NCBI GenBank assembly: GCA_963765765.1
Contig: CAVXYC010000018.1
Location: 111,250 to 175,249, forward strand
DNA: 64,000 nt
Direction of reading: 5' to 3'
Source: an uncultured Chloroflexia bacterium
GTDB taxonomy: Bacteria > Chloroflexota > UBA6077 > JACCZL01
The stretch's first letter is position 1, and each line of letters begins with the position of its first letter. This document shows positions 1-62,531 of the stretch, one piece after another. The notes beneath the pieces are model-generated. The model searched no databases. It was given only the letters and a program-made list of their open reading frames with translations, and was not told the DNA's origin. Both the position numbers and the translations under genes were made by a program.

Positions 1-453
1 AGCAAGCGCGCCGTGCTCCTCGGCCAAGGAGCTACGTAGCTCTCGTAATCGGCCCTCTTCGGGCACTTCGTACTGTGCCAGCTCCTCGGTCGTCATCTTC
101 TCGCCCGTGAGGTAGTCGACCACGTCCGCGAAGAGCTGGTAGTGGCGGAACTCTTCTTCCAGGAATTGGATCTTGTGGAGGAAATCGTGCCGATCAACGC
201 CGTGCTCCAGCATGTCGTAATCATTCTTGAGCTCGTTGATCAGGCGAATGATGATGCCGTTGGGGCGTGGCTGAAGCTCCTTGTACGCTTGCATGCGCAG
301 CCACCGAAGATGCTCGTCCTTGCTGCGTGGCTGACTGAAGAACGTGCGAGTCACTTCCGCTTCCCCCGCCCACCAGCGAGATGCGAATTCGGTGAGCTCA
401 TTGCGGCGCTTTCGGGCTCGGATCTCATCCACTTTGATGCCTCCAGACGTCAT
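1..453 (-). CDS. hypothetical protein, N-terminal part (gene runs off the left edge)
   Basis: Minus-strand frame is open from ATG at 451-453 to position 1 (MTSGGIKVDEIRARKRRNELTEF...FLEEEFRHYQLFADVVDYL). Listed + ORF 142..474 is its antisense shadow. No family recognised. Confidence 0.5.
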   Translation of the reverse strand, partial: MTSGGIKVDEIRARKRRNELTEFASRWWAGEAEVTRTFFSQPRSKDEHLRWLRMQAYKELQPRPNGIIIRLINELKNDYDMLEHGVDRHDFLHKIQFLEEEFRHYQLFADVVDYLTGEKMTTEELAQYEVPEEGRLRELRSSLAEEHGALA

Positions 454-599
454 TGCCAAAGCTTCGGCAATTGATCAATTGCCATGTTGCATCCATAGTA
501 AGCTGGCTCAGTTGTAAGGCGCCACGAGCAAATTCATCATCTATACTGGCCTCAATTCGTGATTCCACGCTGGACGGAACGCTCAACGGAGAACTTCCA

Positions 600-1962
600 A
601 TGTTGACCCGCGACGACAACGAGATCTTGACTCGAGTAGGCCCCGGCACCCCGATGGGAGAGCTCATGCGCCAGCACTGGCAGCCAGTTCTCCTCTCCTC
701 GGAGCTCCCACAACGGGACGGACCGCCATTGCGCGTGCGACATCTCAGCGAAGACCTGGTGGCGTTTCGCGATACTGACGGTCGCGTTGGCCTGGTTGCG
801 GAAAACTGCCCGCATCGCGGCGCTTCGCTCTTTTTCGGTCGCAATGAAGAAGCAGGACTCCGCTGCGTCTACCACGGGTGGAAATTCGACGCTTCCGGCG
901 CATGCGTCGACATGCCCAACGAGCCGTCCGGAGAGCAACTTCAAGCACAAAGTAAAGGTCACCGCCTATCCCTGCCAGGAGCGCGGCGGGGTTATCTGGG
1001 CATATATGGGCCGCGCGGCCGAGCTTCCGTCGCTGCCTGACCTGGAGTGGAACATGGTTCCGGAAAGCCACGTATACCTCAGCAAGCGCGTGGCCCAGAA
1101 CAACTTTATGCAGTCGTTGGAAGGCGAGATCGACTCCAGTCACTCGGGCTTCCTCCACTCACTTATTGAGGAGGAAGCAAACTACGACACGATGAGCCTG
1201 CATCGCCGGCCCAACGCCATGCCCGATAGCAAGGGCATGTACTACAAGATGAAGGATCGGCACCCTCACTTCGAATCGCTACACACCGATTACGGCGTGA
1301 TGATCGGTGCGCGAAGGAAGGCCGAGGAAGATTCCTGGTACTGGCGTATCACCCAGTTCCTGATGCCGTTCTATACGATCATCCCACCGTACGGTCAGGA
1401 TCCGTCATTCAGCGGCCACGCCTGGATTCCGATGGACGACGAACACGTGGTGTGCCTGTGCTTCACCTACCACCCCACCAAGCCGCTGACCGAGAAGCAT
1501 CTGGAGAATCTGCGAAACGGCCGACTCGGGCTCCAGGGCCTACACCCGACCGTGGATGCATTCCTGCCGACAACGAGCCGCCCCGCCGGGGCCTGGTGGC
1601 CGAAGATCAATCGCGACAATGACTTCATGCAGGACTGGGATCGCCAGAAGCACGTCGCCTTCTCAGGCCTGCCCGGCACGTGGCCGCAAGATTCCGGCTG
1701 CCAGGAGACGATGGGACCGATCTACGACCGCACCAAAGAACGATTGGGCACGAGCGACACCGGCATCATCCAGGTTCGCCGACGACTCATCCAGGCCGCC
1801 AAGGAGCTGCGCGATACGGGCGAGGAGTCGCGCGAAACTCGCAATCCTCAGTCCTACGCAATCCGCTCCGCGGCTGTAGTGCTGCCACGCAAGGAGCACT
1901 GGGTGGAAGCCGCTGCCGAGTATCTCAGGGTCACGCCTGGTGTGAATTTCGCGGCGGCGTGA
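600..1962 (+). pseudogene. Rieske [2Fe-2S] non-haem-iron oxygenase, large-subunit type; one frame change near 927-931
   Basis: ATG at 600 (MLTRDDNEILTRVGPGTPMG). Rieske motif CPHRGASL..CVYHGWKF lies in the frame of ORF 453..1040. The continuation NFKHKVKVTAYPCQERGGVIWAYMG is in the frame of ORF 787..1962. Colinear with the intact paralog 24676..25887. Confidence 0.85.
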
Positions 1963-1981
1963 CTCGATGGCTGCCACTCTA

Positions 1982-2008
1982 CTGGGACCGCCGACATCCT
2001 GTCGGCCC
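1982..2008. repeat. left REP-like inverted repeat (contains the palindrome gccgacatcctgtcggc)
   Basis: Read directly; 27/27 match to the reverse complement of 2814-2840. Confidence 0.9.
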
Positions 2009-2113
2009 GGCCCCTGAGGGCTGCCTTAGGTTGCCACTACCACGATTGACAGGCGTGTTCGCCGGCGGCCCTTGTGGGCCGGGCCCACAAGATGTCGGGG
2101 CCCCGGTGAGGCG

Positions 2114-2710
2114 ATGACGATTCAATCAACGCCGCACCTGGGCTGGCACAGTCGAGGCTATCTCTCGCATCTCGACGAACCGGGACGCGTGCAAGTGATC
2201 ATCTATCGTCTGGCCGATTCGCTGCCGCGGCGCTTGGTCCATTCTTGGGCAGAGGATCTTCAGAACCTGGCCCCCAGCATGGCGCGCACTGAATTATCAA
2301 CGCGAGTCGCAGATGCGCTTGATCGAGGACTTGGTGCCTGCTGGCTGCGGCAATCAGAAATCGCGGAGATCGTCGAACAGTCCCTCCTGCACTTCGACGG
2401 CCAACGTTATCGGCTAGTAGCTTGGTGCATCATGCCGAACCATGTGCATGCAATGATCTGGCCAATAGATGGATTCTCCCTGGACAGAATTGTTCAGTCC
2501 TGGAAATCATTTTCAGCCGTGCAATGCAACAAATGATTGCGACGATCAGGCACTTTCTGGGCACGTGACTATTACGACCGATTCATTCGGAATGACGTGC
2601 ATCTCGAACGAGCCGTGGATTACATCGAAAACAACCCTGTGAAGGCAGGACTAGTTGACTCGCCTGAAAATTGGCCATGGTCAAGCGCCCGTCGTCGACG
2701 GGCCCCGTAG
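2114..2710 (+). pseudogene. REP-associated tyrosine transposase (IS200/IS605-like HUH Y1 transposase), in-frame TGA at 2534-2536
   Basis: WHSRGYLSHLDEPG N-terminus and HUH motif MPNHVHAM. After the TGA the same frame continues LRRSGTFWARDYYDRFIRN..ENNPVKAGLV..WPWSS (catalytic Tyr region). RBS ggtgagg lies before ATG 2114. Confidence 0.85.
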
Positions 2711-2813
2711 GCCGGGACGGCCGACATCTTGGCCACCCAGCACCCGAAGAGCCGCCTCGCGAAATCATTCCCGCCGGTGGCCGTGGAGGCCGGGACGGCC
2801 CTGCGAAGGGCCG

Positions 2814-2840
2814 GGGCCGACAGGATGTCGGCGGTCCCAG
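2814..2840. repeat. right REP-like inverted repeat
   Basis: gggccgacaggatgtcggcggtcccag, reverse complement of 1982-2008. Confidence 0.9.
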
Positions 2841-2846
2841 TGCGGC

Positions 2847-3540
2847 TTAGCTTCGCTTCATCCGATACAGCTTGATCGTCTGCCCGTGCTGCTGTGTCGG
2901 TAGGAGCTCGGGCTCGGCAACGATCAGCTTGGCCTGGCGTGCGAGCAGCGGGAAGCGCTCCGCGGCGCCGCGGCCTGGGTCGGCGATCCAGGCTTCACCT
3001 TCTGGATTGAGGTGACGCGGGTAGGAATCTCGCGACGGCGGGGGCGTTGCGCCACTCGTAGAGCACGTCCGCCCCGAGAATAAGGTCGAAGCGACCGCAG
3101 GGTGGCGGCTTTCGCCAATCTCCTACGATCATCCCGGTGGGCTCAGGTAGCCAGTCGTTAGCCAATACGCTAAGCGCGACGATCTCTAGCGCCCGCGGCT
3201 CCCAGTCGAAAAACGTCACTCTGGCGCCGCGACGAGCAGCCGCGAAGCCGCATGGACCCAGTCCACAGCCCAGGTCGAGAACGGTGAGATCGTCCAGTCG
3301 CGGTCCCGATAGTACGTGCGCAACGAGTGACTCCGCGGAAGCCCAGATCGTCCCGAAGTACGGCATGCGCTCATCGCCGTCGTCGAACTCCTGCTGCGTC
3401 ATAGCGTCAAGCGGCGCATCGGGATCTTGAAGCACCCACATGCCGAATGAACGATCCGGTTCGGTAGAGGTTGGGGCGCTGAATTCGCGCCAGATGAGCT
3501 GGAACCCGGCTGCTACGGGTCCAAGCTCACCCGCAAGCAT
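2847..3540 (-). pseudogene. class I SAM-dependent methyltransferase (lysine-methyltransferase-like); frame change near 3016-3024
   Basis: SAM motif I VLDLGCGLGPCG in ORF 2995..3540. The C-terminus RHLNPEGEAWIADPGRGAAERFPLLARQ..LYRMKRS continues in another frame to the stop at 2847-2849. Confidence 0.75.
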
Positions 3541-5205
3541 CTAAACCTGCGCGGAGACGGACTGTTCGTACTTGTGGCCGAGTGCCTCTTCCCATCGGAG
3601 GTACTGAACCATGTCGGCGTAGCTACGCTCGGTTCCGGCCGGCACCACGTCGTTTGGTGCTTCCATGATGCCGGTCAACCCTTGCTCAACAGCCAGTCCG
3701 GCGGCCCGCCATGCGCGAATTCCGCCAGCAAGCACACCAACCCGCCGATAGCCCGATACGGGCCATGGTGAGCGCGGCGAGGAGTGCATTCTGTCCATTG
3801 ACATCGCTCACCAACACTGGGGCATCGAGATCCGGAGCCGACGTCGGCCACGTTCAGCTCCAGCCAGCTACGCGACACCCATTGCGATCCGGGGATATGG
3901 CCGGCCGCGAAGTCCCGGCTCGTGTCCACAAAGATGATGCCGAGATCGGGGTTCGTTGCCAGCGCATTGCCGAGAGATATCGGGTCGATTGATGGCACCA
4001 TCCGCTCAGCTTCGTCAAGACCGAACGGCCGCGGGTCTGCGCCGCCCGTCTCCAGATCTTGCCCCGCGGCTAGCCATGCCGTTGTACCACCGTCCACGGC
4101 GTAAACCCGACGGAAACCCATCTGTCGGTACCACGATGCGGTCACGAATGAGCGCGTGACGCCATCGTCGCAGAACACCACATGCGCGGAGCGCACGGCC
4201 ACAGTATCATCGACACGTTGCACAGCCTGTCCACCCGGGACCCAGACGAATCCGGGGATATGGCCGGCCTCGAACTCTTCACGCGATCGGACGTCGATGA
4301 AGTACATGACGCGGTCTGTCTTGGCCATCATGTCACGCAGAGCGTCGATCGAGAGCGCACGCACGCCATCTTCCCTGGCTACTCGACGCGCGAATTCCTC
4401 TGCCCTGGCCTGCCCTTCGGCGGAGACGTCTGGCTGGCTCACGCGGTCTGCGTCGCGCTCGAGCGCGAGGCCCGCCAGCGACCAGCCAGATGTGCCGTTT
4501 CGTAGTCCAACGACGTTCTGCAGCCCCATGCGCTGAAGCGTGCGCGTGCCAATGATGCTCCGAGTCCGCCCCGCGCAGTTCACCACTACACGCGCATCTG
4601 GACGCTCGGCCACAATGTCGGCGATTCGGAAAGGGAAGCTCTGCTCCGGGCACGCTTCTGCCACCGGGAATGCAGCCTCGCTGGAACTCCTCGGGCGTAC
4701 GCGTATCCAGGATGACGACGTCATCACCCCGATCAAGCTGCTCCTTGAGCTCTGTCGCGCTGATCGAGGGCACATGGTGCTCCACCTCGATCTTCTCGCC
4801 GAAGTCCTTGCTGGGGACGTTCATGCCCCACTCCGTAGGAAACCCTTCGCTTGCCCAGCGATTGATCCCGCCGGTGAGGACGTCAAGAAACCCGTAGCCC
4901 ATGGCGGAGACGGTCTCGGCTGCCAACATCGCACGGCGACCATCGTCGTCGTACAGCACCACGGGTATATGCGGAGTCGGAACGAGGCGGCTGAGCGTGT
5001 ACTCGATCAATCTGCGAGGAACAGAGCTGGCGCCCGGAATGTGCGCCGCGTTGTACTCGCCCTGCTCTCGTACATCGATCAGCGCCATCGGGGTACCGGC
5101 CTCGATGCGCTTCTGAAGCTCAGCCGGTGTGAGCGTTGGCTCCGTAGGCGGACCGTGCATGGAACATGCGTCGGCTCCGAATTCTTCCATGCCCTCGACC
5201 GTCAC
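3541..5205 (-). pseudogene. multi-domain rhodanese (sulfurtransferase) protein, four rhodanese repeats; about three frame changes
   Basis: Repeats IDVREQGEYNAAHIPGA, ILDTRTPEEFQRGCIPGG, FIDVRSREEFEAGHIPGF and FVDTSRDFAAGHIPGS are spread over ORFs 4333..5205, 3675..4775, 3541..3804 and one unlisted frame. Shifts lie near 4630, 3832 and 3752. Confidence 0.8.
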
Positions 5206-52449: not shown

Positions 52450-53054
52450 GTACTCCACTAATTCGTCCTTTGCGTCCCTGCGGTCCCTTTAATCTCACCG
52501 GAAACTCTTCGCCGGCGGGATGGCGGGCAGGCGAGCTTTGGCCGCTTCTTCTCGGGGATCGTTACCTGGGCGGTCGCGTGACTCCAATGTCGGCAAGTCG
52601 CCCTCGCGTAGCGCTTCTATGTCGTCCACCAGGATGTTGATATTGCCGTCGCGGCACTGAAGGCGGCCGCGGACGATGACCATGGTCTCGCCACGAATGA
52701 TCGGTCGCTTGCGCTCATAGAGCGGCGGACGAATGATCGCGTTGGCCATACCCGTCTCGTCCTCCACCAGCAAGAACGTGAACCCCTGAGCGGTGCCCGG
52801 TCGCTGGCGGCACACCACCAGCCCGGCCACGCGCACCGGCCAGCCATCCGGTAACGCCTCCAGCTCCTCCGCTGAGACAATGTCGGACGGCAGCCGTGCC
52901 CGCATGAGCCCCAGAGGATGGAGTGACGGCGAGAGCCCCAGCGTGTGGTAATCCGCCACCATGCGCTCCCACGCGGTCATCTCTGGCCGCTCGATCATGT
53001 CCTGTTCCGTGCCGAAACCGAGAGGGAGGTTGCGGGGCGTGCCTGGGGAAGCTT

Positions 53055-53144
53055 CCTCGCCCCCTGGGAGAGGGTTGGGGTGAGAGAAGCTCGATTGCTT
53101 CTTTCGCGAGGCCCTCACCCCAGCCCTCTCCCAGGGGGCGAGGG
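53055..53144. repeat. GC-rich palindromic element P1 inside dnaE2 (translated in frame as ..LAPWERAGVRA...HPNPLPGGEE..)
   Basis: cctcgccccctgggagagggttggggtgag ... ccctcaccccagccctctcccagggggcgaggg. Confidence 0.9.
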
Positions 53145-53426
53145 AGCTCTTCCGACTTGGCTGCGGCTTCTTTTCCCGCCTCGATTGCTCCAGCAGCCCG
53201 TACTGCCACAACAGCTCACGACGGTTGAGCTGGAACGAGGGAAACGCGCCCAGCAGAATGAGGTTCTCCATGGCCGGGCGCTTGATGTCATACGCCGCGG
53301 TACGGTGAACGAAATCCTCGAGATCTCTGAACGGCCCGTTCCGCTCCCGTTCCGCTACGATCAACGCACTCATCTCTGAATTCAGGCTCCGCACCCGATC
53401 CAGCCCCAGGCGAACCGCGGACAACG

Positions 53427-53499
53427 TCGAGTGATGAGTCATGAGTGATGAGTCATGAGTACGGTCATCTTTACTCATCACCCATGACTCATCACTCGA
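53427..53499. repeat. heptamer-tandem hairpin H2 inside dnaE2 (read through in frame)
   Basis: tcgagtgatgagtcatgagtgatgagtcatgagta, loop, actcatcacccatgactcatcactcga. Translated as VSSDESWVMSKDDRTHDSSLMTHHS between conserved segments. Confidence 0.9.
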
Positions 53500-55195
53500 C
53501 ACCTGGTATGTCACCGTGCACTTCACGCCGCTCCGATTGATGTCCACCGGCAGCACGTGCACGCCGTGGCGGCGGCCGTCACCCACCAGCACGTGCGGCG
53601 CGTAGAAACCCATGGGCTGGTTGTTGAACAGGGCGCAGAGATACTCCGCTGGGTAGTGGTAGCGCAGCCAGGCGGATTGGAACGCCAGGATGGCAAAGGC
53701 CGCCGCGTGGCTTTTGGGGAAGCCAAATTCGGAGAAGCCCACCAGCTTGTCGAACACCTTGGTGGCGGTGGCTTCGTCCACATCGCGCTGTATGGCACCG
53801 TTCAGGAACTCCTCACGGAACGCCTGCATCGCTTCGGCAGAGCGCCGTCGGCTCATCGCTCTACGCAGGCCATCCGCTTGCCCTGAGCTGAAACCGGCCA
53901 ACTCCTCGGCCACCTGCATCACTTGGTCCTGGAAGAGCACCACGCCCAGGGTGTCGCGCAGCACCTCCTTTAGAGAAGGGTGGTCCACCTCGTAATCCGT
54001 GGCGCCCTGCCGCTGCCGCTCACGCTGGCGGACGTAGGGATTTACCGCGCCCCCCACGATGGGCCCGGGCCGAACGATGGCCACCTCGATAGCCAGGTCA
54101 TCCAGGTTGCGCGGCTGGGTGCGCGGCAGCATCTGAATCTGCGCACGACTCTCTATCTGAAACAGCCCCACGGTATCGCCCGCGCAGATCTGGTCATAGA
54201 TCTTGGGGTCGTCGTAATCGATCCGAGTGAGATCCTCCACTCGTCCCGTGTGTTGCCAGATGAGCTCCAGGCATTCCTCCACCAGTGAGAGCATGCCCAG
54301 CGCCAGGAAGTCCACCTTGATGAAACGCGCGTCATCGCACGAATCTTTGTCCCACTGGCAGATGTAGCGACCCTCCATGGCCGCCGGCTGCACGGGCACC
54401 AGCTCGATAATCGGGCGCGATGAGATGATCATCCCGCCCACGTGCTGACTCATGTGGCGCGGAAAGCCGGCAATCTGCCGGGCCAGCTCAATGAGGTGAC
54501 GCCAGATGGGTACGTGCACCAGGTCCTTGAGATCCGGCAGCCGCTCCATCTCCTGCTCCACGGTAGCCGCGGAGCCCCACTCGCTCAGCTTGGCCAGCTT
54601 GTCCAACGTGGGCGCCGGCAAGCCCAGCACCTTGCCCAGATCCCGCACGGCGCTGCGAATGTGATACGTGGCAAAGCTGCACACCAGCGCCGCGTGGTCC
54701 TTACCGTAGTGCTCGTACACCCGCAGGATGAGCTGCTCCCGAATGTCTCGCGCAAAGTCGAGATCGATATCCGGGACGGAGTGCATCGCATCGTTGAGAA
54801 AACGCCCTAGAAACAGATTGTTCTTGACCGGATCCACCTGAGAGAGGCCAATCAGGTAACAGACGATGGAGCTCACCGAAGAGCCGCGTCCCCGCCCGCA
54901 AGGCAGATTTGATTTGCCGCGCGCGGTATTGGATCCACCGCGGACGTCATTGGCCACTTCTCTGGCCATCTGCAGCAGATCGCGATACACGAGGAAAAAC
55001 CCGGACAGCCCGTGGCGCTCAATAAGCCCCAGCTCCTCACGCAGCCGCCCCACCGCGTCAACTCGTCCCGATGATCCTTCCGGATATTTCTCCTCCAGCG
55101 CCGCCCAGCAGTACTCACTCAACACCGCGTCTGCATCCGTGGCCATATCCTGCAGCGCGCCGATATTGGTGCCCGGAGCTTCATCAGAGGAGGCG

Positions 55196-55290
55196 CTCCC
55201 TCGCCCTTTGGGAGAGGGTTGGGGTGAGGGCCCTACGGTGGGGGATATCGAGCTTCCCTCACCCCAACCCTCTCCCAGGGGGCGAGGGAG
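55196..55290. repeat. GC-rich palindromic element P2 inside dnaE2
   Basis: ctccctcgccctttgggagagggttggggtgaggg ... ccctcaccccaaccctctcccagggggcgagggag. Confidence 0.9.
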
Positions 55291-55301
55291 ACGCCTCCCC
55301 A

Positions 55302-55422
55302 CCCCAGCCCTCCCCGTGCGCGGGGAGGGGGCCGGATTCTCCAGATTTCTCTGTCACAGCCCCCTCCCGGAGCAAATTTTCTCCATATCCGGCCCCCTCC
55401 CCGCGCACGGGGAGGGCTGGGG
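55302..55422. repeat. compound palindrome Q1 (36-bp perfect arms, each itself containing cctccccg-gcgc-ggggagg) inside dnaE2
   Basis: ccccagccctccccgtgcgcggggagggggccggat is the exact reverse complement of 55387-55422. The ORF break between 55302 and 55354 falls inside it. Confidence 0.9.
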
Positions 55423-56018
55423 TGGGGTCGTCCCCTCCGTCGCATCAGTCCCCTGAGTCCCAGAGGCCCCATACACCCCGCCCGGCCGCACATCCCTCCG
55501 AAACTCCGGAAACCGATACCCGAGATCCTCAGTCAGATCAAACTCGCTGCAACGCTCGGCAATCTCGCGGGTAGATTGAATGGCCTGAGGCAAATCGTGG
55601 AACCGTGCCGCCATCTCCGCCGGGGTCTGCAGAAAGAACTCACTGTTTGGTCGACGGAGCTGATGGGAGCCTTCCAATGTAGAGCGATGCTTGATGGCCA
55701 CCATGGCGTCCTGCAGCCGGTGTCGGGCGCGCTCGTGATAGTGCACGTTGCCCGTGGCCACGATGTCCACATTCAGTCGCTCAGCCAGCTCCACCAGGCG
55801 CAGCACGCGACGCTCATCGCCCTTCACCAGATGACGCTGCAGCTCCAGATACAGCGCGTGCCCGCCAAACAGATCGCGCAGCCAGCGACCGGCCGCTTCC
55901 GCCTCCGTCAGCCGCCCTTCATCGATAAGCTGGCACAGTAGCCCGTGTCGACAGCCAGACAGCGCGATCAATCCGCGCGTGCGCCCCTCCAGCGCCGCCG
56001 CCGGCAGACACGGCGCCT

Positions 56019-56105
56019 TCGCCCCTGGGAGAGGGTTGGTGAGGGCTCTTTCCACCGAACGAGGCTGATTGCTCTTCCCTCACGCCAACCCGCTCCCAGG
56101 GCGAG
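56019..56105. repeat. GC-rich palindromic element P3 inside dnaE2 (arms differ by a 1-nt indel; the frame changes here)
   Basis: tcgcccctgggagagggttggtgaggg ... ccctcacgccaacccgctcccagggcgag. Confidence 0.85.
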
Positions 56106-56428
56106 CATGGAGCCTGACACATTGCGACGCTCCGGGTCGCACGCATCCGTCAGCAGCCGACACAGGTTGGCGTAGCCCTCGGGATTCTCGGCCAGCAGCG
56201 TCAGGTGGCAGCGTCGACCGGATACGTCAAGCGTCAGCTCCGCCCCGGTGATCGGCTGGATCTCCACAATCTTTGCGTACTGGGCAAAGGCCATGGCGCC
56301 GGCAAGGTTGTCATGGTCGGTAATCGCCAGCGCCCGGTAGTCGAATTCGCAGGCGCTATTCATCAGCTCCTCGATCTGCGACGCGCCGTCCAGAAACGAG
56401 TACGCCGTGTGGAGATGCAGCTCTACAT

Positions 56429-56524
56429 AGTGATGAGTAGTGAGTGATGAGTGATGAGTCACCATCGGCAAGGATCTCTACTCATTACTCATGACTCATT
56501 ACTCATGACCCATTACTCATCACT
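56429..56524. repeat. heptamer-tandem hairpin H3 spanning the imuB stop / dnaE2 start junction
   Basis: agtgatgagtagtgagtgatgagtgatgagtcac, loop, tactcattactcatgactcattactcatgacccattactcatcact. One arm encodes the THHSSLTTHH at the dnaE2 N-terminus. Confidence 0.9.
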
Positions 56525-57091
56525 GCGTCTTTAGCGCTGGGCGTACCACTGGCCGTCCACCAGGTCTTTGTAGATCTCCAGGCGCTTTCCGCCTTCCAGC
56601 AGCACGCCAAAATACAGCCGGCTCACCGGCCGATTTCGCCACCACTCGTCATCAATGCGCCAGCGCTCCAGCACTTCAGCCACTCGGCGCCGGCTTCGCT
56701 GCCAGGTCACCGTTATCGGCGCGCCATCCTGATGCTCCACGCGAATTGCGTTCGGCTCGTTCAGAAATTGCAGTCGACCAGTGCCCAGCGACGCTCGGGA
56801 AAGCGTGACCACGGCTCCACCTCCATGATTCGATACAGTTGTCCGGCCGGGGCATCGCCAAAGCGCATGCGTAGCTGGCGCGCGGCCTCGGCCACACCCG
56901 TAAGCTGCCGGCGACGACCGCTCCACAGCTCCTCCTGCATCACGCTGGCGCCCTGCTTCAGCACCAGCGTTACTCCTAGCTCTGCCACCGCGCCCTCCGG
57001 ATGCGCATTGCCCAGCCGCCCACGCAGATGCTTCAGCGCCGTAGCAGCGCTGGCCACCGGCTCGCGCAGCGTGAAGGTGCGTTCCCAGGAC

Positions 57092-57189
57092 GAGTGAGCA
57101 GAGGTGAGAGGTCGGAGGTCAGAGGTCAGGAATCGTCTCCGATCACCTCGCTCATCACTGACCTCTGACCTCTGACCTCTGACCTCTCG
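57092..57189. repeat. heptamer-tandem hairpin H4 inside imuB
   Basis: gagtgagcagaggtgagaggtcggaggtcagaggtcagg, loop, (tgacctc-type units)x4. Read through as EVRGQRSEVSDERGDRRRFLTSDLRPLTS. Confidence 0.9.
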
Positions 57190-57702
57190 TCCTTCGCCCC
57201 ACGCCCGCAATGTGATCTGCTCCACAGAACGGCCTCGCGTCACCGGCAGACTGAAGGCGCGCACCAGCACACGCTCTAGCCCGGCCAGCAGCCCTTGAGA
57301 GCTCGCCACGGCGGATGGAAAGCGCAGCCGCGCCTCGGCCTTCAGCGCGCGAGCTCGGGGCTGGAACGGACGATCGTCCTGCCCGCACGCCAGCCTCCAG
57401 GCACGGCCGCCGGCCAGCGCCAAACTGTGCCTGTACCGGCCCCAGCGGCAACCCTGAGAGGGCGCCCAGCGTATGGAGCCCCTGCTGCTGAAAGCTGCGC
57501 GCAAGGTCCGGCGTGACCGGCAGCAGCACCGCCGGCAACGGCGCCAGAAACGACTTCTCCGCCCTCGCGGGCACAATGCTCACCTGCCCCGGGCTGTGCC
57601 TGCCGCGCCGCCGCCTCCGCCACAAACTTCCCCCGTGCCACCCCCAGCCGCGCCCGGAACATCGAGGGCACGGAGCGGAGGATGATCTGGAGATCGCTTT
57701 GC

Positions 57703-57786
57703 GAAGTGAAGAGTGAAGAGTGAAGAGTGAAAGACGGCAGTGTGGGTGGCTCATTCTCCACTCTTAACGCTTCACTCTTCACTTCC
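57703..57786. repeat. heptamer-tandem hairpin H5 inside imuB
   Basis: gaagtgaagagtgaagagtgaagagtgaaag, loop, tccactcttaacgcttcactcttcacttcc. Read through as KEVKSEALRVENEPPTLPSFTLHSSLFTS. Span as drawn is 84 nt. Confidence 0.9.
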
Positions 57787-58173
57787 TTCCCCAGCGCCTC
57801 CACATCACAGAACACCACCCCCAGCCCGGCCGGCTCCACCGGGCCAATGACCTTCTCCAGGTCATCCAGCACCTGCTCAAACCGCTGGGCGTAGAGCACC
57901 GGATCAGGCGGCACCATCACCAGCTCACGACACAGCGCCAGCGCCTCCCGAGCCGGCATGCCCGGGCGCACACCCACGGCCGCGGCCTCAGGAGAGCACT
58001 CCAGAATCTCGGGCCGTTGCCCCACGCCGGAGGTGAGCGCCAACGGCGCGCCGTCCTGCGCGGCATTACGCATCGTCTCCACACGCAGCGCAAAATGCGG
58101 CAGCAGGAGGCAGCCGATCATTTGCCTGGCCATCACTCGTCCCCTCCAGCCGGGCCCTGGGGCCGCGGGCGTC

Positions 58174-58686
58174 CTACCCGTCCCCGGCTTTCCGGTGGGA
58201 CGGGCGTCCCTGCCCGTCGCGGCCTGGAGGGCCGCCCCTCGAACACAGCGAGCGGTGACGGGGAGTACTGGAGGCGGGCTCGACGCCCGCGACGGGCAGG
58301 GACGCCCATCCCACCGGTGGAAAAGGAACGCTCCCCGGCCCTGCGGTACAGCCGTCCATCACTCGTCTCCCCGGAGCGTTCGTCCCGGCCGCCATGGACC
58401 CGCGCGAAGACCGCACCCGCACGCCGGCGGCAGAACGCCGCCCCGCGCTGAGCTGGGTGTCCACCGCGGCGTACAGTCCGCTGGCAGAAAGCCCCAGCGC
58501 CAGGCCGCGCATCACCGCGCCGGCCATCGTGATGCCGTCATCCGCCGCGATGAGGCTGAGCGCCAGGCCCAATGCCAGCGCCATCGGAGCCGCCCACCGC
58601 GCGCTCAGCCCCGTACCCTTGGCCACCTCCACCAGCCCAATGATCACCGGTACCACCAGCACACCGAAGAATTCCGTTGTATCCAC
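58174..58686 (-). CDS. phage holin, A118/Hol118-like (3' part of the ORF runs through a repeat and is probably not genuine)
   Basis: MDTTEFFGVLVVPVIIGLVEVAKGTGLSARWAAPMALALGLALSLIAADDG..GLALGLSASGLYAAV matches the Hol118 layout (TM, K-T-x-L, W, TM, DG, TM, GL). The C-terminal 100 aa overlap element U1. Confidence 0.6.
   Translation of the reverse strand: MDTTEFFGVLVVPVIIGLVEVAKGTGLSARWAAPMALALGLALSLIAADDGITMAGAVMRGLALGLSASGLYAAVDTQLSAGRRSAAGVRVRSSRGSMAAGTNAPGRRVMDGCTAGPGSVPFPPVGWASLPVAGVEPASSTPRHRSLCSRGGPPGRDGQGRPSHRKAGDG
58192..58317. repeat. palindromic element U1 (gggacgggcgtccctgcccgtc family)
   Basis: ccggtgggacgggcgtccctgcccgtcgcgg ... ccgcgacgggcagggacgcccatcccaccgg. A degenerate half copy lies at 58161-58187. 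Confidence 0.85.
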
Positions 58687-58703
58687 AACCGTCCCCCTGA
58701 CGG

Positions 58704-58802
58704 GAGTTAAGAGTGAAAAGTTAAGAGTGAAATTGAGATTGTCGAAATCAAATCAGCTTCCCCAGTGCCATTCTTAACTCTTAACTTTTTCACTCTTAAC
58801 TC
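58704..58802. repeat. heptamer-tandem hairpin H6 (intergenic, tail-like gene to holin)
   Basis: gagttaagagtgaaaagttaagagtgaaattgagatt, loop, tcttaactcttaactttttcactcttaactc. Confidence 0.9.
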
Positions 58803-58809
58803 AACCTCC

Positions 58810-60630
58810 TCACGCCTCCAACAACCTCAAGCTGCCTCTCAACTGCGTTCCCATCCGTTGGCTCATCTTGGCCCCCTTCTCCTCGTAGTCCAGCAGCCAC
58901 ACATTCCGACTCACCCCGTCCAGATCCACATACGTCAGCGGCCCCGCCTGACCGGCAATGCCCCACAACGCCGTGCTGAGCTGCGCGCTTGTCTGCGAGC
59001 TATTGCTCCCATCCAGCAGCACCATCGGCATCTGCCCGCTCCCCTCGATGAGGCAATCGAACTCCCACACGCGCTTGACGCCCGGCGCCGGCCGACAGCG
59101 CATCTCGAGCGAGAAGAACCGCAGCGGCGTGGCCCCGCCAGCAGGGCCCGTCAGGATCACTCGGAACGCGATGAGCTTGCCCGCCACCGCCGCGCCAAAC
59201 GTGAACGTCGCCGTGGTGCTACTCGTCGTGCTGTTCGTGCCCAGGCTCGTCCACGCGCCGGTGTCCTCCAGGCGGTACTGCACCTGCACGCTCTGACCCG
59301 CCAGCAGCGCCGCGTGGTTGATCGTGACGCTCCGAAACACTTTCGTCACGCCCGGCAGCCGCGCATCGATCAGCCCCGTCTCCAGCGTCGCCGCCGCCTG
59401 ATGGAGGTCGCTCCGAACCCTGAGCATGAACCAGTTGGTCGTACTGAGCTGGGCAATCACGTAGAGATCGCCACCAAACCACGCCAGGCTCTGCGCGCGA
59501 CCATTGCCGGCCATCGCGGCCACGGCCACCGGCTCGCTCCATCCGACTGATCCGCCTGAGGCGGAGGCCGCTCCGTCGTAGCGCTTCAGGCCCACGCCGG
59601 CCCCGTCCGAGAACGCCATCCAGAAGCCCCCGCGACCGCTTGCCGTGGCGCCCAGCGCTCCGCCCGCGTACGGGATCGTCAGTGGATGCGGGATGGGCTC
59701 AACGTCGCCATTCCGCCAGCGGTACACCACCGGGTAGGCCGATGAGCCGCGCTGGCCCACCAGGTAGCTGGCATCTCCCAGCACGCTCCCACCCAGCAGG
59801 CTCACGCCATCGATCGTCGTCGTAAACGCCCATTGCTCGGAGGCCGCGTTGTCCTTCAGGGTGTACACGCCCGTCCGCGCGCCGCTGCCCATCTGTGTCC
59901 CGCAGAACACCGCCGTTGTCCCAATCACCTGCGGCTGCACGCGACAGCTCGGCTCGTTGAGCTGGTAGCGCAAGGCGGAGAGCGTTGCCCCGTCCGTGTA
60001 ATAGACTCGGCACCCGTCCGGCGCCTCACCCACCAGGTACAGGTAGGCCACCGAGCCCCGATAGAACACGCCCATGCTGTAACACGCGGTGACCGGCGGC
60101 GGCAGCGTCACAAAGACGTCGGTGTAGGTCGCTCCATCCCATCTGGCAATGCTGCCGTTGCCCGTTTTGCCAACGTAGAGCTTGCCCTGATACTCGGCAA
60201 AGCTCGCCGCTCGACCGCCCGTGGCCAGCGTAAACGGCGCCCCCAGCGACGCCCCATCCCAGCTCACCACCGCGCCGCCGTTGGCCCCGTGGTAGTACTT
60301 GCCGAGTGCCGCGATGGATGGTCCGGGCGAGAGGTCATTGACGCCGGCGTTCACCTGGGCGGCATGCGGCCCCTGCCGAGCCGCGCCGGGCTCGGTCCAT
60401 GGATCCAGGCCCGGACCAAACCGGTATCGCCCGGGCTCGTCCTCATCGTGCCGGGTGAAGCCCTCACCGCCGCTCCAATCGTCGATGAGCACAGCCATTT
60501 CGTTCCGCAGGTCCCCGTAGCCGCGATCCCCCGAAGACGTCTTCGGCGCAAACGGGTCGGCCAACGTCCGCCGATAGCTCTGCACATCCAGCAGCAGCCC
60601 CTGCCCGGCCAGCATCACGTGATAAGTCAT
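58810..60630 (-). CDS. phage tail/adsorption-like protein: N-terminal beta-propeller-like repeats plus a C-terminal phage-type domain
   Basis: Start set at MTYHVMLAGQGLLLD. About seven repeats of the type G.LYVG..G.I.RWDG. The C-terminal about 200 aa resemble phage tail/tubular proteins (my recollection, not a search). The upstream 18 codons of the track ORF lie in repeat H7. Confidence 0.5.
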   Translation of the reverse strand: MTYHVMLAGQGLLLDVQSYRRTLADPFAPKTSSGDRGYGDLRNEMAVLIDDWSGGEGFTRHDEDEPGRYRFGPGLDPWTEPGAARQGPHAAQVNAGVNDLSPGPSIAALGKYYHGANGGAVVSWDGASLGAPFTLATGGRAASFAEYQGKLYVGKTGNGSIARWDGATYTDVFVTLPPPVTACYSMGVFYRGSVAYLYLVGEAPDGCRVYYTDGATLSALRYQLNEPSCRVQPQVIGTTAVFCGTQMGSGARTGVYTLKDNAASEQWAFTTTIDGVSLLGGSVLGDASYLVGQRGSSAYPVVYRWRNGDVEPIPHPLTIPYAGGALGATASGRGGFWMAFSDGAGVGLKRYDGAASASGGSVGWSEPVAVAAMAGNGRAQSLAWFGGDLYVIAQLSTTNWFMLRVRSDLHQAAATLETGLIDARLPGVTKVFRSVTINHAALLAGQSVQVQYRLEDTGAWTSLGTNSTTSSTTATFTFGAAVAGKLIAFRVILTGPAGGATPLRFFSLEMRCRPAPGVKRVWEFDCLIEGSGQMPMVLLDGSNSSQTSAQLSTALWGIAGQAGPLTYVDLDGVSRNVWLLDYEEKGAKMSQRMGTQLRGSLRLLEA

Positions 60631-60635
60631 AGCGA

Positions 60636-60697
60636 GAGTGATGAGTAATGAGTCATGGTGACGAGTAGATGAGTGATGAGTCATAAGTAATGAGTGG
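60636..60697. repeat. tandem heptamer array H7 (gtgatga/gtaatga/gtcatga units, one orientation only)
   Basis: gtgatgagtaatgagtcatggtgacgagtagatgagtgatgagtcataagtaatgagtgggg. Spans the stop of the hydrolase gene and the 5' end of the tail-like ORF. Confidence 0.8.
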
Positions 60698-61517
60698 GGA
60701 GGGATGCGTCCGCGTCCCGCTGCTGACTACTCATTCCTTTCTGGGCATTTCCGAAGGCCGCCATCAGGCCGGGGTCGCGCAGGAGACTGAACTGCCAGAA
60801 CGCCTCGTCCGGGCTATCCAGGATGAAGTACACCGCGCCTTCCAGGCCGGGCGTCTCCGCCAGATCGCGGCATACGCGATCGAACGGCACGCGGTTGAAC
60901 TCGGTCACCAGCAGCGGCCGCTGGATGCCCGCCATCTCCAGCATCTCTCGGCAGCGTCGGTGCAGCCCCCAGCCATCCGCGTAGGCGTGCACGTCCACCA
61001 CGTCATAGAGCGGAATCACCGGCTCCAGCTCACGCCAGTACTGGATGGCGCGCTCGCTGTTCTCGCCCGTCCAGCCGCTCCACGGAGCCGGCAGATGCAG
61101 GCGATCCTGCGGTCGCAGCGCGCGATAGACCTCCGCAAACGCGCTGAGCCAGGTGCGATGACGAGCGTAATCGTCGTGCCCGTTCTCCGCCGCGCCCGGC
61201 CAGTTCATCTCATTGGCCGGGATCACCTCACCGGTGCTGGACTCAAAGAACACCGTGGCGCGGCGAGCACATTCCACCGCCCAGGCAGCCGGGTCGCGTT
61301 GCGGAATATCGCGCGCGTAGCAGCGCAGCAGTGGCACGCTGCCGCGCGCTCGAAGTCGGGCCGCCAGCGTGCTGTGCTGGCCCAGCCCCTCCCACTCCTG
61401 TATGTCATGCGCCAGAAACAGCGTGTGCCGCGGCCGCAGCCGCGCCAACGCCCCCAGCGTCGGCCGATCATACGCCCCGGCCACATTAGGGGTTTGAATA
61501 CCTAAGAGATGCTGCAT
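60681..61517 (-). CDS. TIM-barrel glycoside-hydrolase-like protein (possible phage lysin or depolymerase)
   Basis: Clan GH-A-like pair of acidic motifs: ..IPANEMNWPG.. and ..RPLLVTEFNRV.. . Start set at MQHLLGIQ. Weak, motif-level call. Confidence 0.45.
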   Translation of the reverse strand: MQHLLGIQTPNVAGAYDRPTLGALARLRPRHTLFLAHDIQEWEGLGQHSTLAARLRARGSVPLLRCYARDIPQRDPAAWAVECARRATVFFESSTGEVIPANEMNWPGAAENGHDDYARHRTWLSAFAEVYRALRPQDRLHLPAPWSGWTGENSERAIQYWRELEPVIPLYDVVDVHAYADGWGLHRRCREMLEMAGIQRPLLVTEFNRVPFDRVCRDLAETPGLEGAVYFILDSPDEAFWQFSLLRDPGLMAAFGNAQKGMSSQQRDADASLPTHYL

Positions 61518-61532
61518 AAATCCCTTCCAGAC

Positions 61533-61628
61533 GGCCCCCTCCCCGCGCACGGGGAGGCATGGGTGGGGTCGTCCCTCGCTCGCTTATAGCTAGGAGACCC
61601 CCTCAGTCCCCCCATGCGCGGGGGGAAG
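61533..61628. repeat. palindromic element Q2 (same family as the right half of Q1)
   Basis: ggccccctccccgcgcacggggagg..gggtggggtcgtccc..cctcagtcccc..tccccccatgcgcgggggga. Shares strings with 55391-55470. Confidence 0.8.
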
Positions 61629-61642
61629 GCGGTTATTGAGCG

Positions 61643-62531
61643 CTAGGCGTTATTGATTCCTTTGATTCGGGCCAGGGCGGAGTCGCGCAGGATGGCGATG
61701 CTCACGTACCAGCGGATGCGCACGCGGGTGGCGTCCTTGGTCTGGAGCTGGCCCACGTCCAGCACCTCCAGGCCGCCGTTCTGCAGACCCACCACGCCGT
61801 CACCTTCATCGAAGTGGATGGCGTAGATGCTGGAGGTGGCGTTGTCCGTGCCCTGCGTCTCCGCATCAGGCTGGAAATCGCTAATCTCCACGGGCACGCC
61901 GTCGTACAGCATGACCTGTCGACCAAACGCGTTCTCACCGCGCTCCACGTAGTGCGCGCTGGCCTGCAGCAAGCTCTTCAGCTTGCGACGCGTCCGTCGA
62001 CTCATCAACAGCAGCGTGGGCTTGCCGCCCAGAATCAGGTCCATCACCTGATCCAGCAGCGCCAGCGTCAGCGGCCCGCCGTTGGTCGCCACGCTGATCG
62101 TCTGACCCGCGGCCACCTGCTTGCGAATGCCGTCGAACGCGTTCGCATCCACGCCGGTATCGCCGGTGATGAACGTGTCCTCAAACTTGCGGGCCACGCT
62201 CTTGGCCTTGAGCTGAGTCTGGATAGCCTGCTGATTCTGGAGACTGGAGCGCGTGCGCTGGATGAAGTTATCCACGTCCGCGTCGCCACCCAGAATCGCC
62301 AGACTGGCCGTCTTGTTGGAGAACGTGCTGGTGGCCTCCGTCCAGGTGCCATCCACCGCGTAGAACGCCGCGCCACCCAGCACATTCTCCTGGTTGTATT
62401 TGTAAAACTGGACACAATGTGCTCGTCCTGACGTGGACCGACCGAAACGAGGCGGCCTCGAAGGGGGTCTGAGAGGCCTTGGGACAGCCTCAACGCTCTG
62501 GCAAATCACTCCGACTCCTCACACTCTTCAT
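61643..62531 (-). pseudogene. phage major capsid protein (HK97-fold type), 5' end degraded (in-frame TGA and a frame change in the first 40 codons or so)
   Basis: ..ILGGDADVDNFIQ.., ..KPTLLLMSRRTRRKLKSLL.., ..SSIYAIHFDEGDGVVGLQNGGLEVLDVGQL..RVRIRWYVSIAI are typical capsid-family strings. ATG at 62529-62531 gives MKSVRSRSDLPER, then TGA, then the main ORF 61643..62509 in another frame. Confidence 0.6.

Follow-up and report, generated by a model that had tools for sequence, protein, structure and literature searches.

We consider it likely that the long palindrome in dnaE2, a gene for an error-prone polymerase, belongs to a REPIN-like repeat family, here called B, one copy of which lies in the short, flexible linker that joins the PHP domain of DnaE2 to its palm domain, and that the imuB-dnaE2 cassette in which it sits has recently been inactivated. 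A recent pair of pseudogenes is the most likely state of the cassette. From the sequences compared, the lesions appear to be real changes and not consensus errors, and the order of events given below is likewise inferred. The window is a stretch of 64,000 nucleotides (C18:111250-175249) from a draft metagenome-assembled genome of 6.49 Mb in 33 contigs, with 61.2% G+C, an estimated completeness of about 92% and an estimated contamination of 6.9%. The relatives of its dnaE2 come from Chloroflexota, Thermomicrobiales and Sphaerobacter metagenome-assembled genomes, and a single genome in the comparison belongs to the same genus (hereafter the congener).

The B element of the window is a compound palindrome of 135 nt (55295-55429), in which a left arm (55297-55337) and a right arm (55387-55427) of 41 nt each are 100% complementary and enclose a copy-specific loop of 49 nt (55338-55386). 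A sequence-only reading of the window had reported a perfect inverted repeat with 36-bp arms; the repeat is real, and a repeat search extends its arms to 41 nt. Each arm holds one small palindrome with a 9-bp stem and a 4-nt loop, and this 22-nt unit, CCCTCCCCG-YGCR-CGGGGAGGG, is matched three times in the window, the expected number being 0.01. The same search upheld the neighboring palindrome P2 (55196-55290), a member of a second repeat family, A, with 35-nt arms (55196-55230 and 55256-55290) that are 94% complementary. When folded as ssDNA, the 301-nt block made up of the A and B elements forms two adjacent long hairpins at -125.9 kcal/mol, compared with -69.2 +/- 3.9 kcal/mol for shuffled sequences (z = -14.6).

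A 52-nt stretch (55430-55482) that separates the conserved EFRRDVR codons from the B element had been counted as the tail of the insertion. We reject it as part of the element, as it lies outside the family consensus, both it and the 49-nt loop are unique, with no further copy of either in the source genome, and the likeness to the copy near 61.5 kb stops at GGGGTCGTCCC. The latter, previously placed at 61533-61628 as a related copy, does belong to the B family but consists of a solo right arm only (61533-61577, about 45 nt at 93% identity), which is intergenic between phage-like genes.

On the minus strand, the insert separates ..LGYRFPEFRRD from ATDADAVLSEYC.. of DnaE2, and the enlarged linker is made up, in gene direction, of the 52-nt unique stretch, then the B element of 135 nt and, 6 nt further on, P2. 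The corresponding linker, from Y.FP.F.. to ..AD.VL, has 5 or 8 residues in 31 orthologous loci, 45 residues in the congener and about 115 codons in the window, and a B element is missing from the congener at this position, so that the proposal of an insertion within dnaE2 is borne out relative to the orthologues. It had also been proposed that no frame is open across the insert and that the gene is split there. The first statement is literally true, but the interruption amounts to one stop: the minus-strand frame that encodes ..DLGYRFPEFRRDVR runs through the whole insert into ..ATDADAVLSEYCWAALEEKY and meets a single TGA (55354-55356), which lies in the B loop and is the sole in-frame TGA of the DnaE2 frame. 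Since the same frame is used on both sides, the length of the insert keeps the DnaE2 frame. The gene is thus interrupted here, but not simply split, as the insert is in frame except for one codon and a second break lies near 56019-56105.

The A element beside the B copy has a counterpart at the same place in the congener, where an A-type element is read in frame at the PHP-palm linker (..DVRTEVMPPLPLGEGWGEGPANGNTREPSPHAPSPRGSMGEASADADTVLEEF..). P2, which reads ..PRPLGEGWGEG..PSPQPSPKGRGS.. in the DnaE2 frame, shares the site, orientation and frame of that element, while no alignment is obtained between the two over the loop and the right arm. Two contigs from Thermomicrobiales metagenome-assembled genomes (L026, positions 1-80; L027, positions 1-30) begin inside a different palindrome at the same linker. 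This palindrome, cagcgaaggatctctc...gagagatccttcgctg followed by ..gctcaggatgacagggg, is unrelated to A or B, and its presence indicates that the site is repeatedly permissive. The two contigs suggest both an independent colonization of the linker and assembly breaks at the repeats.

The dnaE2 gene (52495-56471, minus strand) encodes an ImuC-type error-prone Pol III alpha subunit with PHP, DNA_pol3_alpha, finger, HHH_6 and OB domains in that order (Pfam), and it lies downstream of imuB, which has an IMS domain, and of a small DUF6504 frame. The protein is 84% identical to its orthologue in the congener and retains the catalytic PDIDLDF motif. In the congener, dnaE2 stays open in one frame over at least 946 aa, whereas the gene of the window is not a single uninterrupted frame and occupies three (56471-55968, 56055-55354 and 55302-52495), owing to one TGA and one frame change. 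The frame change, from frame 2 to frame 0, falls within or just after a second, degenerate A-family palindrome (56019-56105) in the N-terminal linker of DnaE2, a stretch of variable length, and the position of the change is approximate, the N-terminal linker at this palindrome not aligning with that of the congener, from which the palindrome is absent. A third A-family palindrome (53046-53150) is translated in frame within the 935-aa C-terminal frame. No second dnaE2 was found in the assembly; dnaE1, of 1325 aa, is separate from this locus. A scan of metagenome contigs with patterns from the flanking dnaE2 sequence found neither an empty nor a filled copy of the locus, and an exact-protein look-up of encoding contigs for the 935-aa frame gave no match.

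The partner gene is damaged as well. Relative to the congener, imuB (Y-family-like, IMS domain; 56764-58133, minus strand) shifts frame by +1 twice, once near 57593 and again near 57416, so that three frames are used. Neither change is at a repeat, and one of the two is not in a homopolymer. The congener imuB is intact at 443 aa and has an A element of its own in frame. The genes directly upstream of imuB, which encode SU10_MCP capsid-like, hydrolase, tail-like and holin-like proteins, occupy 58387-62404 in the window and 93-4291 in the congener locus (L016). These four phage-like genes (4.3 kb) give single unbroken alignments to the congener at 68 to 91% amino acid identity. Because this block beside imuB-dnaE2 is collinear in the congener, it is common to the genus and is not a recent prophage. 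With these four neighbors intact and 29 open frames of at least 1000 aa in the genome, dnaE1 among them, the assembly is not generally frameshifted. The lesions are therefore local, and pseudogenization is the simplest reading of the cassette.

An alternative is that dnaE2 is functional, the A and B block being tolerated and translated in the manner of Rickettsia palindromic elements (RPEs), with the TGA and the three frame changes as consensus or sequencing errors. Such a reading would account for an insert that keeps the frame and contains one stop, for the translation of A elements in frame within intact genes of both the source genome and the congener, and for the conserved catalytic motif. 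It also fits the rate of protein change: over the alignment columns that five outgroups conserve, the DnaE2 of the window shows 27 private changes and that of the congener 20 (chi2 1.0), so that no excess amino acid divergence is seen and accelerated protein evolution as a signature of a pseudogene was rejected. The absence of such an excess means that inactivation is either very recent or not real. Nevertheless, a functional gene would require four independent errors within 5.4 kb, against none in the 4.3 kb of the four neighboring genes, in a genome with many open frames of at least 1000 aa. Moreover, the imuB change outside a homopolymer is not readily taken as an error, and the B copies elsewhere in the genome all lie outside long open frames. 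On this balance, we regard a functional dnaE2 as unlikely.

The sequence-only reading had named a palindromic chimera as the finding that would undo it, and a chimera or a misjoin at a repeat must be weighed for any long perfect inverted repeat in a draft genome that is split into 33 contigs and estimated to be 6.9% contaminated, as chimeric reads and hairpin artefacts can yield such structures. Here, however, the length, termini and inner motifs of the element recur in the 28 further two-armed copies, each at a unique locus, and its loop is unique and not palindromic. Furthermore, both flanks are collinear and co-oriented with the congener dnaE2, while a chimera would invert a unique flank. 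These observations make an assembly artefact very unlikely.

The B family is dispersed over the source genome. With up to three mismatches allowed, its terminal motif GGGGAGGGCTGGGGTGGGGTC has 76 matches, which cluster into about 47 loci, and 29 of these are two-armed. The two-armed copies measure 48 to 140 nt and have common termini (GACCCCACCCCAGCCCTCCCC...GGGGAGGGCTGGGGTGGGGTC) and variable loops; copies contain a small palindrome inside each arm and an inner CCGGAT(T) motif. Two subfamilies differ at the tip of the small palindrome (..CCCCGYGCRCGGGG.. versus ..CCCTGCCGCAGCGGGG..), and minimal forms are present as single hairpins of 48 nt. Complementarity tends to continue past the conserved termini over a few variable nucleotides, for a mean of 1.97 nt, versus 0.51 nt in permuted controls. 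The outer stems are perfect over at least 33 nt in 13 of the 29 two-armed copies, from which it follows that the perfect arms of the dnaE2 copy are a trait of the family. Among the remaining 28 two-armed copies, none lies within an open reading frame that extends for at least 100 aa to each side, the extragenic status of these copies being an ORF-based proxy made without gene calls. The search for target-site duplications that had been advised was carried out, and all 29 two-armed copies lack terminal direct repeats of at least 3 nt. The dnaE2 locus is the only one at which a B copy adjoins an A element, which rules out a targeting of A elements by B.

The distribution of the two families differs among relatives. 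At no more than two mismatches, the B terminal motif has 71 matches in the source genome, none in the congener and 0 to 13 in 29 other relatives, where the terminus is mostly different. These counts point to a recent, lineage-specific burst, and we read the B family as a recent expansion in this lineage. The earlier suggestion that the insertion is recent is thus probably correct, but the identity of the arms on which it leaned is not specific evidence, perfect stems being frequent in the family. In two other relatives (G029 and G018), a related repeat ends in a variant terminus, GGGGAGGG(C/T)TGGGGTGGGGG(T/C), with 8 to 13 matches in each genome, and some of these repeats stand in tandem about 95 to 113 nt apart; they hint at sister families of B elsewhere in the order. 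The A motif GGGAGAGGGTTGGGGTGAGGG was detected in 26 of the 31 relatives, the highest count being 275 matches, so the A family appears from its distribution to be old and widespread in the order.

These features liken B to the REPINs, which are doublets of REP sequences mobilized by RAYT transposases (Bertels & Rainey 2011, PMC3116915; PMC3337134). As in REPINs, a 22-nt unit (CCCTCCCCG-NNNN-CGGGGAGGG) occurs in each arm and is repeated genome-wide, two inverted units and a spacer form one long hairpin (29 copies), there are tens of copies per genome without target-site duplication, the other two-armed copies are mostly extragenic by the ORF proxy, and solo arms and minimal forms coexist within a sequence family that is specific to the lineage. 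The differences are that no RAYT flanked by B repeats was found, that the small stem carries no class tag, that the arms, at about 41 to 45 nt, are longer than typical REPs, and that the host belongs to the Chloroflexota and is not a proteobacterium. In the classification of Di Nocera et al. a GTAG or CGTC tetranucleotide at one end of the stem is the tag of a REP class (PMC3733652). Neither adjoins the small stem of B, which is flanked by CCCCAG and GGCCGG; a CGTC about 13 nt away is present only in some outer termini (GGGGTCGTCC). Given that no RAYT is linked and no tag is found at the small stem, the element is REPIN-like and not a proven REPIN.

Three Y1_Tnp (PF01797) genes are present in the source genome, which is about 92% complete, and no A or B motif lies within 3 kb of any of them. 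Each is bracketed by its own unrelated terminal inverted repeats (TIRs) of 25 to 35 nt; some RAYT-like genes have been described as carrying unrelated TIRs ("TIRtrons") (PMC3733652). These HUH transposase genes, which are RAYT- or TIRYT-like, are located at 1981-2841 of the window (L014 1080-1940), at L013 1324-2065 and at L015 1320-1842, and an in-frame TGA interrupts the one that lies in the window. B also resembles bacterial MITEs (PMC10969869) in being dispersed and non-coding, with a size of 90 to 140 nt and long terminal inverted repeats. It differs from them in the lack of target-site duplications in 29 copies and of a parent insertion sequence with matching TIRs among the Y1 genes. An intron, an intein or a known structured RNA was rejected, as the insert amounts to about 115 codons of low-complexity, repeat-encoded sequence and matches no Rfam family above threshold; the Rfam matches were confined to sub-threshold miRNA hairpins (at most 42.5 bits, with gathering scores of 40 to 105).

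From these observations we propose the following course of events. A non-autonomous B family would have amplified recently in this Chloroflexota species, its two inverted REP-like units (9-bp stem, 4-nt loop) and the outer complementary sequence folding into a stem of 41 bp. By analogy with REPINs and RAYTs, the ssDNA hairpin may have been recognized in trans by a tyrosine HUH transposase. One copy would then have landed in the PHP-palm linker of DnaE2, 6 nt from an older A palindrome that had been tolerated in frame. This copy would preserve the frame, with translation of DnaE2 predicted to stop at the TGA in its loop. The TGA, the frame change of dnaE2 at another palindrome and the two shifts in imuB would together have inactivated the cassette.

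The A family recalls the RPEs in being translated in frame, as in DnaE2, the congener ImuB, a GlcE-like oxidase and a membrane glycosyltransferase with a PMT_2 domain, although the two have no sequence relationship and the host of A and B is free-living and of high G+C content. With regard to in-frame read-through, the hallmark shared with RPEs, the A copies at 55196-55290 and 53046-53150 are open, whereas the B copy is closed by its TGA.

The density of repeats in dnaE2 is high: its 3977 nt contain three A elements and one B element, where a total of 107 loci in 6.49 Mb would predict 0.066 (Poisson P = 7e-7), and all A cores of the 64-kb window fall inside this gene. The repeats of imuB-dnaE2 are of several kinds (A palindromes, B elements and hairpins with heptamer arms), and in other orders different palindromes occupy the same linker. 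This crowding, the stability of the fold and the position of a stop inside a hairpin loop, in a frame that is otherwise kept, could together be taken to mean that the hairpins form a device for regulation or recoding, be it by attenuation or termination of transcription in the imuB-dnaE2 operon, by ribosome stalling or bypass that would yield full-length DnaE2 only in certain conditions, or as a reversible switch based on precise excision; for REPs in repair genes, Di Nocera et al. speculate on a modulation of mutability (PMC3733652). A device of this kind, however, would be expected neither to lack conservation of the B insert in every relative nor to coincide with plain imuB frame shifts that no hairpin explains. 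In addition, among about 90 other dnaE2 loci of Chloroflexota and Gemmatimonadota (753 kb), A or B motifs are found only in the congener, apart from one upstream match in L009. We therefore hold a regulatory role to be highly improbable. The same survey rules out an order-wide targeting of dnaE2 by A and B repeats. It is also very unlikely, to judge from the sequences, that imuB-dnaE2 is a preferred site of landing or retention for hairpin repeats with a functional consequence, or that the mutasome is linked to the spread of repeats; were this so, inserts might tune or reversibly silence error-prone synthesis through precise excision or ribosomal bypass.

The sequence-only reading had called so long a palindrome inside a polymerase gene unusual, which does not hold for its kind: Di Nocera et al. 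2013 reported REPs, often as dimers, inside genes of DNA synthesis and repair, DnaE2 among them (PMC3733652). The two cases are alike in that palindromes, often dimeric, stand in linkers of dnaE2 and of partner repair genes, and in that such genes are sometimes the sole decorated ones in their genome region. They differ in sequence family and phylum, and also in effect: the published REPs decorate apparently intact open reading frames without breaking the frame, while the B copy carries a stop and its cassette has further lesions. B is accordingly a new sequence family, and the Chloroflexota are a new phylum, for a phenomenon, REPs inside dnaE2, that is in general already published, and the case opens no new mechanism. 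What it adds is a young, species-specific REPIN-like family in a phylum for which such elements are scarcely described, and an instance in which the probable loss of an SOS mutagenesis cassette goes together with a palindromic repeat, beyond decoration.

The repeats also matter for annotation, as they explain split or oddly extended gene calls, with ..GEGWGEG..PSPQPSP.. peptides, and contig breaks in related metagenome-assembled genomes. A elements with the reading ..PLGEGWGEG..PSPQPSP.. occur in frame elsewhere in the source genome, and those outside the window include palindromes at C23:382247-382319, C30:204588-204660 and C15:461016-461082, which read ..LPLPLGEGWGEG..SPQPSP... One A element lies between the FAD_binding_4 and FAD-oxidase_C domains of the GlcE-like oxidase, another follows the PMT_2 domain of the membrane glycosyltransferase, and a third joins two GT4 glycosyltransferase frames into one open frame of 856 aa.

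Hairpins built of tandem heptamers (ACTCATK and variants) lie at 56429-56524, 53427-53499, 57703-57786 and 57092-57189 of the window. The start of dnaE2, its interior and the interior of imuB each hold such hairpins, and the reading frame passes through them. The congener has other inserts at the corresponding protein positions, namely an A palindrome in its imuB and, in the HhH region of DnaE2, a tandem repeat of the TEDGGRK type, and these alternative inserts are found at about 4643-4727 and 8600-8765 of L016.
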